Origin: an uncultured Actinomycetota bacterium
GTDB taxonomy: Bacteria; Actinomycetota; Thermoleophilia; RBG-16-64-13
DNA: 64,000 nt
Direction of reading: 5' to 3'
Assembly: GCA_963783835.1 (NCBI GenBank)
Contig: CAWAOX010000014.1
Span: 87,855 to 151,854, forward strand
Each line of letters opens with the position of its first letter. The first letter of the stretch is position 1. A program made the position numbers and the translations under genes. The notes under the pieces are model-generated. The model was not told the origin of the DNA. It was given only the letters and a program-made list of their open reading frames with translations, and did not search any database. This document shows, piece by piece, positions 52,493 through 54,253 of the stretch.

Positions 52493-54253
52493 ATGGCCGC
52501 CGAGTCCTCCAGCAGCAGGACGAGCACTCCCTTCTTCATAGCGGTCACCGGACACCGGACGTTCTCCGCAGAACACGCTCCGACGGTCGCCGAGCAGGTC
52601 CGACAGGCGCTCATAGACATCCAGGCACTCGTGCCCAGCACGAGAATCCGCATCGTGTCCGGACTGGCCGAGGGGGCAGATAGAATCGTCGCACAAGCTG
52701 GCCTGGACCTCGGACTGGAGGTCGAGGCCGTCGTCGCGGCCCCAGTGGGACGGTATCGTTCCGGCTTCACGGCCGCTTCGCGGGATGACTTCGATGCGTT
52801 CCTACGCCGTCCGGGGGTGGCGCTCACCGAGGTCCCGGTAGGCACCTACTCTGCCGAAGCCGCGGAGGCAGAACGAGCCGCTCCGTATGTGGCGGTGGGG
52901 CGCTACCTGGCCAGCAGGGCGAACCTGCTATTCGCAGTCTGGGACGGCAGTCTGACCGGCCTCGCTGGCGGTACTTCCGACGTTCTTCTGGGCTTCCTCG
53001 GGGCCGGCGAGGACCTAGTCACCCCGGCATCTGAAGTGCGGTTCTTGAGTGGCGAGGAAACCGCCGCGTTTGGCCCGGAATTTGCACTGTGGTTTCCGGT
53101 CCCTCGAGGCGAGGGCGGGGATCGGCCGGCCACACACGATGGCCCGGTCTATCTCAGCGGTGCGGGCCCGAGAGCCCTCGCCCGGCACGCGTCGATGCCG
53201 CAAGCGCTCAGGCAACAACTAGAGGAACTCGAGCGGTACAACCTATCCGGCGCGTCGGGTGACGGAGCAGAAAATGCGGTTCCCGAGACCATAGCCCTTC
53301 TGGCCGGCGACCCGGCGGCTGTCGAAGACAACCGGGGGCTCTTGTCGGTCATCGAGCAGGAGTTCACCAAGGCCGACCGGCTCGCCCTGAGGAACCAGAG
53401 ACGCTCGGACCGCTTGTTCCTCGCGTTCGGCGTGATGGCCGCCCTGACCGGCGCGCTCTTCTTGACCTACGCGGCCCTGCATCATGTCTGGGGCTATCTC
53501 ATCGGGTATCTCGTGCTGCTTCTCGGGGGCATACTCCTTCTCCGCTTGTCGCGGCGCATGCGTTGGTTCCGGCAACATCTGCTCTACCGGACGCTCGCGG
53601 AGGTGCTCCGCAGCCGGCTCTACCTCGCCGGTGCCGGGATCGGCGATTCTCCGCTCTACTCTGATCTCCTTGAGCTCTCGGGGGTCACGCGGTACCCCGG
53701 ATACGGTCTGGTCTCGCTCGTCTCAAAGAGCGTTGAGCCCACCTTTTCAGATGGCGGTTCCGAGTCTTGGGAACCTGACGATTCTCGAATTGCCGCGGTC
53801 GAGAAAAGGTGGGTGGACGGACAGATCGGCTATTTCGAAACCAAGACCACCCGCATGCTTCGCACCCTCCACCGGTTCGGATGGGTCAAGACCGGACTGG
53901 TAGTGGTGACTGTCATCGGGCTTCTCTGCCTCATAGTTTTTGGGAACGACCTGGCCTCGGTCGATCTGGGCGGAGGCGTGATCGCGAAGGGTGTCGTCAT
54001 CTTCTTTGTGGCACTCCTCCCCTACCTTGTTGGGGTGTGGGGTCTGTACGAGTCGAAGCTGGCGACGCCAGAGCTCCTGTGGCTGTACCGCGATCAGGCC
54101 GATTCCTTCCGCCGGGCGCGGACTGCGCTCCAGTCATCAACCACCGCCGTAGAGAAGCGAGACATCCTGACCGAACTAGGCCGTAGGTCGACGATGCAAA
54201 ACCTGCTGTGGGTCGTCCACCGGTACCACCGCGAGCACCAGCCTCCGAGCTGA
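52493..54253 (+). CDS. SLOG-like nucleotide-binding domain fused to SLATT-type 4TM effector
   Basis: IAVTGHR, VSGLAEGADR, FAVWDG....GGT (SLOG/YspA-like); ADRLA..NQ, two TM hairpins, YRTLAEVLR, WVDGQIGYF. Confidence 0.75.
   Translation: MAAESSSSRTSTPFFIAVTGHRTFSAEHAPTVAEQVRQALIDIQALVPSTRIRIVSGLAEGADRIVAQAGLDLGLEVEAVVAAPVGRYRSGFTAASRDDFDAFLRRPGVALTEVPVGTYSAEAAEAERAAPYVAVGRYLASRANLLFAVWDGSLTGLAGGTSDVLLGFLGAGEDLVTPASEVRFLSGEETAAFGPEFALWFPVPRGEGGDRPATHDGPVYLSGAGPRALARHASMPQALRQQLEELERYNLSGASGDGAENAVPETIALLAGDPAAVEDNRGLLSVIEQEFTKADRLALRNQRRSDRLFLAFGVMAALTGALFLTYAALHHVWGYLIGYLVLLLGGILLLRLSRRMRWFRQHLLYRTLAEVLRSRLYLAGAGIGDSPLYSDLLELSGVTRYPGYGLVSLVSKSVEPTFSDGGSESWEPDDSRIAAVEKRWVDGQIGYFETKTTRMLRTLHRFGWVKTGLVVVTVIGLLCLIVFGNDLASVDLGGGVIAKGVVIFFVALLPYLVGVWGLYESKLATPELLWLYRDQADSFRRARTALQSSTTAVEKRDILTELGRRSTMQNLLWVVHRYHREHQPPS

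Follow-up and report, generated by a model that had tools for sequence, protein, structure and literature searches.

A SLOG–SLATT fusion protein among three TIR genes in an uncultured actinomycetotan: probable output component of a Thoeris-like signalling cassette

SLATT proteins were reportedly named for their association with SLOG domains by Burroughs et al. in NAR in 2015, where SLOG–SLATT fusions are also said to have been predicted by comparative genomics. In two further accounts, SLATT is predicted to be a nucleotide-responsive pore-forming effector (PMC9503650, PMC7159879). The closest described systems belong to Thoeris: according to a preprint by Yirmiya et al. (bioRxiv 10.64898/2025.12.03.692087), a TIR protein together with a SLATT protein constitutes type VII Thoeris, for which the signal is cyclic ADP-ribose (cADPR); the SLOG domain of ThsA is a sensor of 3'cADPR; type III Thoeris comprises several TIR proteins and a SLOG effector (van den Berg et al. 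2024, as cited there); and 29 putative Thoeris types are distinguished, most of them untested. Here, we describe a gene that brings these elements together, located at 52493–54253 of a 64,000-nucleotide stretch (hereafter, the window) from an uncultured Actinomycetota bacterium (assembly GCA_963783835.1, contig CAWAOX010000014.1). A SLOG–SLATT fusion encoded beside TIR is a kind already predicted by others, and the window gene is another member of it; unlike the predicted fusions, its locus adds three TIR genes with Kelch and cyclase-STAND-TPR sensors. The protein is probably the output component of a TIR-based small-molecule signalling cassette resembling Thoeris, in which, as we infer, a TIR product would act on the SLOG domain and the SLATT part would permeabilise the membrane. 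The domains, their conservation, the predicted fold and a TIR neighbourhood that recurs at about half of the related loci support this reading.

The gene and its domains are as follows, with residue numbers here and throughout referring to the 608-aa translation from 52427, in which the gene start is M23:

52493..54253, + strand: SLOG–SLATT gene, 586 aa from ATG 52493 to the stop at 54253 (open reading frame list and translation)
52526..53221, + strand: predicted cytoplasmic SLOG domain, residues ~34–265, with the loops TGHR, AEGAD, WDG and GGT (VIA-align and sub-cut-off Pfam matches)
53351..53632, + strand: first two-transmembrane (2TM) unit, SLATT_3-like, residues ~309–402, ending in the YRTLAEVLR helix (hhalign)
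53780..54238, + strand: second 2TM unit, SLATT_1-like, residues ~452–604, beginning with WVDGQIGYF (hhalign)

The longest open reading frame (ORF) here spans 52427..54253 on the + strand and codes for 608 aa. We take 52493–54253 as the likely gene because the relatives, which are about 585 aa long, have N-termini that match M23, and because a GAGG lies 8 nt 5' of ATG 52493; a scan for promoters and terminators returned sites no more frequent than in shuffles. A first-pass annotation, made from the sequence letters, had picked out a set of motifs and two transmembrane hairpins. The motifs are all present in the translation (TGHR at 41–44, SGLAEGAD at 78–85, AVWDG at 170–174, GGT at 181–183, YRTLAEVLR at 387–395 and WVDGQIGYF at 462–470), and the hairpins correspond to four hydrophobic helices (~329–351, 357–375, 485–505 and 520–541). 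The latter lie within helices 299–350, 355–378, 452–510 and 520–545 of a full-length AlphaFold2 (AF2) model, which was built on an alignment of 142 family sequences and has a mean predicted local distance difference test score (pLDDT) of 88.7 and a predicted template modelling score (pTM) of 0.88. The most distant rows of this alignment are 19–26% identical to the window protein. Across it, G83, R388, E392, R395, W462 and W595 are invariant, and G42, H43, R44, A81, A84, D85, W172, D173, G174, G182, T183, Y387, A391 and Q466 are conserved in at least 90% of the sequences. Since the motifs are kept across such diverse sequences, they are not chance occurrences.

Judged from its modelled structure, the N-terminal domain is a SLOG domain of the YpsA/DprA branch, with the ThsA SLOG as a distant relative. 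When modelled in isolation (pLDDT 87.8) and compared with known structures using VIA-align, its top match was YpsA (2nx2; Z 14.4, root-mean-square deviation (rmsd) 3.0 over 160/178 residues), along with DprA (3uqz, Z 11.6; other DprA chains, 10.5 and 10.2), ShosA (8zva, Z 10.8), the Moco carrier protein (Z 9.2) and LOG (5ajt, Z 8.9). Just 35 of 48161 chains reached Z ≥ 5, and these are SLOG structures and little else. The domain displays the Rossmann-like α/β fold shared with DprA, LOG and YpsA and the Gly-rich loops after core strands (36–42, 74–78 and 167–172) that characterize the SLOG superfamily (SMF/DprA-LOG), with a small β-strand addition at residues ~205–254 in the AF2 model. The conserved motifs map to the C-terminal ends of the same three strands and to the N-terminus of helix 183–190. 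In Rossmann-like SLOG proteins, ligands usually bind at such loop positions. A Foldseek search gave nothing at E ≤ 0.001, the best match being DprA at 4.4e-3; the best rows were all SLOG proteins (DprA, ShosA, YpsA, LOG and the N-terminal part of TRPM). Searching the PDB with a sequence profile yielded no matches at E ≤ 1. The Pfam matches of the full protein were all below cut-off (DprA, E = 1.2e-4; YAcAr, 3.3e-3; SLATT_3, 5.1e-3), and PADLOC gave a match to ShosA (E = 1.7e-6). Among 17 family members, Pfam matches at E ≤ 0.01 were seen to YAcAr in 10, DprA in 7, SLATT_3 in 6, DUF4231 in 3 and SLATT_1 in 1. Thus, the SLOG assignment of the first-pass annotation is upheld by the fold match and not by curated thresholds.

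Comparison with ThsA, the SIR2–SLOG effector of type I Thoeris, shows both likeness and difference. In each case, a SLOG sensor occurs near TIR genes, and the folds are related: the ThsA SLOG with bound 3'cADPR (7uxs) was recovered at Z 6.1 (rmsd 4.5, 141 residues, rank 25), although it turned up only with the isolated domain and was not among the best 50 rows with the full-length model. Unlike ThsA, the window protein has no SIR2 match (Pfam, E ≤ 0.1), its SLOG is of another branch (YpsA, Z 14.4), and, whereas the output of ThsA is NAD depletion, that of the window protein is predicted to be a membrane module. The early suggestion of a ThsA analogue with a pore in place of SIR2, therefore, holds for the architecture only: the ThsA SLOG is distant, and the membrane part is a two-unit tandem, as in SLATT effectors that stand alone, rather than a simple SIR2-to-pore swap. 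A second parallel is offered by the TRPM2 cation channel, which has an ADP-ribose-binding, SLOG-like N-terminal MHR1/2 domain on a membrane channel; these ligand-binding SLOG structures were matched at Z 6.9 (8sr7) and Z 6.6 (7aov). However, the six-transmembrane TRP fold is unrelated to the membrane part of the window protein, and with such distant fold similarity this is an analogy and not a membership.

The four-transmembrane (4TM) part is, on the strength of profile comparisons, a divergent SLATT_3+SLATT_1 tandem, because it shows colinear hhalign matches to proteins with that Pfam layout. To obtain references, we drew on 301 genomes of the same phylum, in 17 of which SLATT_3 was matched, 11 above cut-off; nine of the 11 were used, the two omitted being L090, which comes from the unpublished genome G239, and L094, whose sequence contains an internal stop. 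Residues 296–444 matched these nine bona fide SLATT_3 domains with a probability of 92.3% (E = 5.4e-7, 89 columns), YRTLAEVLR falling on the YRxxAExxK helix of SLATT_3, while the SLOG part, used as a control, matched them with a probability of 1.0%. Against four full-length SLATT_3+SLATT_1 proteins, residues 296–608 gave a probability of 94.8% (E = 5.3e-8) over 270 colinear columns, which bears out the early SLATT call by profile–profile comparison, the Pfam match being sub-cut-off. The second unit alone aligned to the SLATT_1 half of these proteins with a probability of 81.8% (E = 1.1e-5, 135 columns). In three of the four references (L085, L087 and L088), Pfam finds SLATT_3 followed by SLATT_1; the fourth (L086) was not scanned and looks frameshifted after SLATT_3. 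The second unit of the window protein has no Pfam SLATT match of its own, and the NCBIfam SLATT_3 model scores 17.6 against a cut-off of 45, with SLATT_1 likewise below cut-off.

Structure comparison of the C-terminal half returned only generic helical matches (Z ≤ 8.7), and a three-copy homo-oligomer prediction for residues 296–608 scored 0.01, which speaks neither for nor against an oligomer. The idea that the two 2TM units arose by internal duplication finds no support, as hhalign of unit 1 against unit 2 gave a probability of 12%. Charged residues flank the hairpins on the SLOG side, and the soluble parts are therefore placed in the cytoplasm: by the positive-inside rule, the SLOG domain, the inter-hairpin loop and the C-terminal helices are predicted to be cytoplasmic, with the two 2TM hairpins in the membrane. 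The locus shares with type VII Thoeris a TIR neighbour and a SLATT-type membrane effector, given the alignment of its C-terminal half with SLATT_3+SLATT_1 proteins. The type VII effector ThsH differs, by the preprint's description, in being a SLATT protein whose ligand pockets lie where its protomers meet, whereas the window protein has a SLOG domain fused in front. In the window protein, this fused SLOG is a likelier ligand site than SLATT.

The genes around the SLOG–SLATT gene are as follows:

50772..52358, − strand: TIR-TM-Kelch gene, divergent, 528-aa ORF with likely start M16 (52313) (Pfam)
49163..50784, − strand: second TIR-TM-Kelch gene, ORFs of 409 aa and 139 aa with a frameshift near 49600–49615 (Pfam, tblastn)
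54337..58233, + strand: TIR-cyclase-STAND(AAA_16)-TPR gene, 1298-aa ORF with likely start M7 (54355) (Pfam, PADLOC)
58253..58325, − strand: tRNA-Arg(CCT), 20 bp beyond the stop of the TIR-cyclase-STAND-TPR gene (ARAGORN)

As in Thoeris, TIR genes adjoin the effector gene: only three TIR_2 matches occur in the whole genome (90% complete at 2.52 Mb), each in one of the genes flanking its single copy of the SLOG–SLATT gene. The product of the divergent gene combines TIR_2 (E = 2.9e-19) with Kelch families (up to E = 5.4e-74), separated by one hydrophobic segment that is K/R-rich on its N-terminal side. For the second TIR-TM-Kelch gene, Pfam finds TIR_2 (E = 8.5e-17) and Kelch on the first ORF and Kelch alone on the second; the frameshift, near 49600–49615 and next to a short run of G/C, may stem from misassembly or mark a genuine pseudogene. 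The third TIR gene follows 84 bp after the SLOG–SLATT stop on the same strand, and its product shows TIR_2 (E = 5.7e-19), Guanylate_cyc (E = 9.2e-5), AAA_16 (E = 4.3e-25) and TPR_12 (E = 6.8e-7) in Pfam and PycC in PADLOC (E = 1.4e-5); the NCBIfam TOMM kinase/cyclase model covers residues 173–832 (E = 1.9e-83) at 281 bits against a cut-off of 706. All three window TIRs have a putative catalytic Glu at the position aligned with that of TIR NADases, as do 59 of 60 TIR segments in the alignment, among which the second 'TIR' segments of TIR-TPR proteins look doubtful. The presence of several TIR genes around a single SLOG-bearing effector recalls type III Thoeris; unlike in that type, the window TIRs stay below the NCBIfam model ThcB4, whose cut-off is 220 bits, with scores of 19.2 and 19.9. 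Neither NCBIfam nor PADLOC has a Thoeris model that the window effector matches. L006, a related locus, shares the left flank of the cassette (ORF clusters c41 and c42) but not the right flank; no integrase was seen.

We then examined the neighbourhoods of homologues elsewhere, searching for TIR domains with hidden Markov models (HMMs) made from window and neighbouring sequences and iterated until stable; since HMMs made in this way may overlook divergent TIR domains, the figures given are minimum values. The same gene arrangement occurs at three Actinomycetota loci with 78–88% identity (L005–L007, from two metagenome-assembled genomes (MAGs)). Among 80 genome loci, which are mostly from Steroidobacteraceae (33–38% identity), 37 have a TIR ORF no more than 3.4 kb from the homologue, and in 35 of these the distance is at most 1.1 kb; the same 3.4-kb range holds a TIR ORF at 33 of 80 metagenome loci (24–33% identity). 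When only loci with 2.5 kb or more of flanking sequence on each side are counted, the corresponding figures are 29/60 genome and 15/25 metagenome loci. The domains fused to the adjacent TIR vary by lineage, being Kelch, cyclase-STAND-TPR, TPR or none, and TIR is thus the constant partner. In eight gammaproteobacterial loci (L035, L050, L059, L069, L075, L077, L079 and L080; at ~3.4–8.0 kb in each), a TIR-TPR gene of ~750 aa precedes the homologue, with a conserved gene of 476–987 aa upstream of it (ORF cluster c11) that has no Pfam match and may be a third component. In Colwellia and Thalassotalea (L014, L026 and L033; 6985–7932 in L014), the upstream gene codes for an ion-transport protein with a TerB-like tail, and these genomes are without any TIR_2. 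The MAG that contains L005 has a second copy at L007 (3616–9360; 88% identity), in which the SLOG–SLATT frame is interrupted and a single open frame joins the SLATT part to the TIR-cyclase gene; this could be a decaying paralogue or reflect long-read errors.

The family itself is large: when 1.84 billion cluster representatives (clusters at 50% identity) were searched with a profile, 12929 proteins were retrieved at E ≤ 0.001, of which 4660 reached E ≤ 1e-30, and the best 150 matches are nearly all full length (560–640 aa). Look-alike clusters in the ESM Atlas are all annotated as 'hypothetical protein', a minority of their members having DUF4231 or SLATT families. We also found split forms, in which SLOG-only ORFs matching the N-terminal half of the family profile adjoin SLATT_3 genes (G191:C16:77548-79185 and G183:C2:57085-58283), which points to SLOG and SLATT being a functional pair.

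Taken together, the fusion of SLOG to SLATT and the repeated presence of TIR nearby agree with the SLOG domain being a sensor. The nucleotide-gated membrane role proposed in the first-pass annotation, with TIR as the source of the nucleotide, is in keeping with the genes around this locus and around roughly half of the related ones. In the cassette as we envisage it, one or more of the three TIR proteins would be switched on by its own sensor part, the candidates being an extracellular Kelch propeller or an intracellular STAND-TPR module. The TIR domain would then convert NAD+ to an ADP-ribose-derived nucleotide, which would bind where the conserved SLOG loops (TGHR, AEGAD, WDG and GGT) form a pocket. 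Binding may alter how the SLATT_3/SLATT_1-like 4TM module packs or oligomerises, and the membrane would become permeable, with growth stopping or the cell dying by the logic of Thoeris immunity. If true, a type I Thoeris SLOG sensor would be linked to a type VII SLATT membrane effector, and the family, with 4660 clusters and no curated model that names it, would rank among the largest effector families of TIR signalling still to be characterised. As the SLOG branch differs from that of ThsA, the ligand could be an undescribed TIR product. With four genes in ~9 kb, the cassette is compact and a workable test case.

Several observations weigh against the Thoeris-like reading. The protein passes no curated Pfam or NCBIfam model: the isolated first 2TM unit scores 20.5 bits against the Pfam SLATT_3 cut-off of 26.3, and the Pfam scores for DNA_processg_A (DprA) and YAcAr are 23.7 against 29.6 and 19.8 against 28.2, respectively. 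Its SLOG is far nearer to those of YpsA/DprA than to that of ThsA (Z 14.4 versus 6.1), the only one for which a TIR ligand has been proven. One of the three TIR genes is frameshifted, and tblastn with the intact orthologue from L005 (525 aa) switches frame at that point. In the sequence at hand, 43 of the 80 genome loci and 47 of the 80 metagenome loci have no TIR, many of the metagenome contigs being short. A whole-genome Pfam search of 36 genomes with a TIR-less locus (36 of the 43, the seven with short flanks being left out) found TIR_2 elsewhere in 31 and none in 5, and on a tree of 80 proteins, from which L007 was dropped because of stops in the merged range, TIR adjacency must have changed 15 times or more. 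Literature searches returned no experimental study of a SLOG–SLATT protein. Other contrary points also favour an alternative in which the biochemistry would be the same and would serve ordinary signalling rather than abortive infection, the protein being a regulated ion or solute channel that answers envelope or environmental cues through Kelch and STAND-TPR parts. PADLOC revealed no defence island among 10 neighbouring ORFs, matching only a Ser/Thr kinase 19 kb away; in Steroidobacteraceae, metabolic genes and a HAMP sensor surround the gene in a conserved chromosomal arrangement; and viral contigs are nearly devoid of it (4 relatives only, with 2.9 million contigs scanned and 68 candidate stretches). 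The very large size of the family (4660 clusters at E ≤ 1e-30), the ion-channel/TerB neighbour in Colwelliaceae genomes without TIR_2 and the receptor-like architecture of the window TIR proteins point the same way. Nevertheless, we regard this alternative as possible but on the unlikely side, as the gene is patchy within the phylum in a manner typical of accessory or defence genes (12/401 genomes at E ≤ 1e-10, a tally that takes in the own genome and the unpublished genome G239 and in which some matches are SLOG-only ORFs; 0/3 genomes when only the same family is considered), the cassette has a tRNA gene at its edge, and the TIR+SLATT systems tested so far are, by the preprint's account, all anti-phage (bioRxiv 10.64898/2025.12.03.692087).

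Two further alternatives assign the SLOG domain a different role. In one, it would sense another nucleotide, such as a cyclic mononucleotide from the downstream cyclase, with the TIRs acting as NAD-depleting effectors or adaptors. The class III cyclase domain of the downstream protein (Pfam, E = 9.2e-5; PADLOC PycC, E = 1.4e-5) would supply such a ligand. The TIR-STAND-TPR layout also resembles that of Avs-type STAND proteins, in which TIR is the effector, so the TIR may deplete NAD instead of making a signal, a point that counts against the Thoeris-like reading as well; the preprint likewise cautions that the TIR of unverified types may be an NAD-depleting effector (bioRxiv 10.64898/2025.12.03.692087). 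Yet, the cyclase is seen only in the Actinomycetota clade, the adjacent TIR protein of other lineages being a short TIR-only ORF or TIR-TPR, and the recurrent element is TIR and not the cyclase, which makes this alternative improbable. In the other, the SLOG would be a membrane-tethered enzyme, namely a LOG-type nucleotide hydrolase, or a DprA-type binder of single-stranded DNA, and the TIR neighbours would be coincidental or only regulatory. The nearest structures (YpsA, DprA, ShosA and LOG) and the conserved polar residues H43, R44, D85 and D173, which could be catalytic, are compatible with such a role. However, LOG enzymes have the motif PGGxGTxxE, whereas the family consensus is GGTAxxV, and the acidic residues that follow GGT in those enzymes are not conserved. 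The SLATT-tandem fusion and recurrent TIR fit a sensor, and the split SLOG and SLATT neighbours indicate a functional pair; hence, we give an enzymatic or DNA-binding role very little credence.

Returning to the Thoeris-like reading, the points of interest at this locus are its three differently wired TIR sensors, two of which are receptor-like with predicted outward-facing Kelch. A speculative extension, which we put forward tentatively and consider rather doubtful, is an outside-in pathway reminiscent of Toll signalling: the two Kelch TIR receptors and the one cytoplasmic TIR-cyclase-STAND-TPR sensor would feed a single NAD-derived messenger to a SLOG-gated SLATT channel. Surface cues, such as phage adsorption, wall damage or neighbours, and internal cues would thereby be channelled into one membrane response, and the ligand would be new because the SLOG is of the YpsA/DprA and not the ThsA branch. 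The TIR-TM-Kelch partners raise the question of whether bacteria report extracellular events via TIR domains.

Two other genes of the window may be mentioned. The Ser/Thr kinase is encoded at 31033–33261 on the + strand (742 aa) and matches the PADLOC PD-T4-6 models (E = 5.6e-102), which probably reflects general kinase similarity rather than a defence gene. The gene at 39380–42910 on the − strand probably codes for a large surface protein (1176 aa), in which TIG/IPT, carboxypeptidase-regulatory-like and CE2_N domains are combined.

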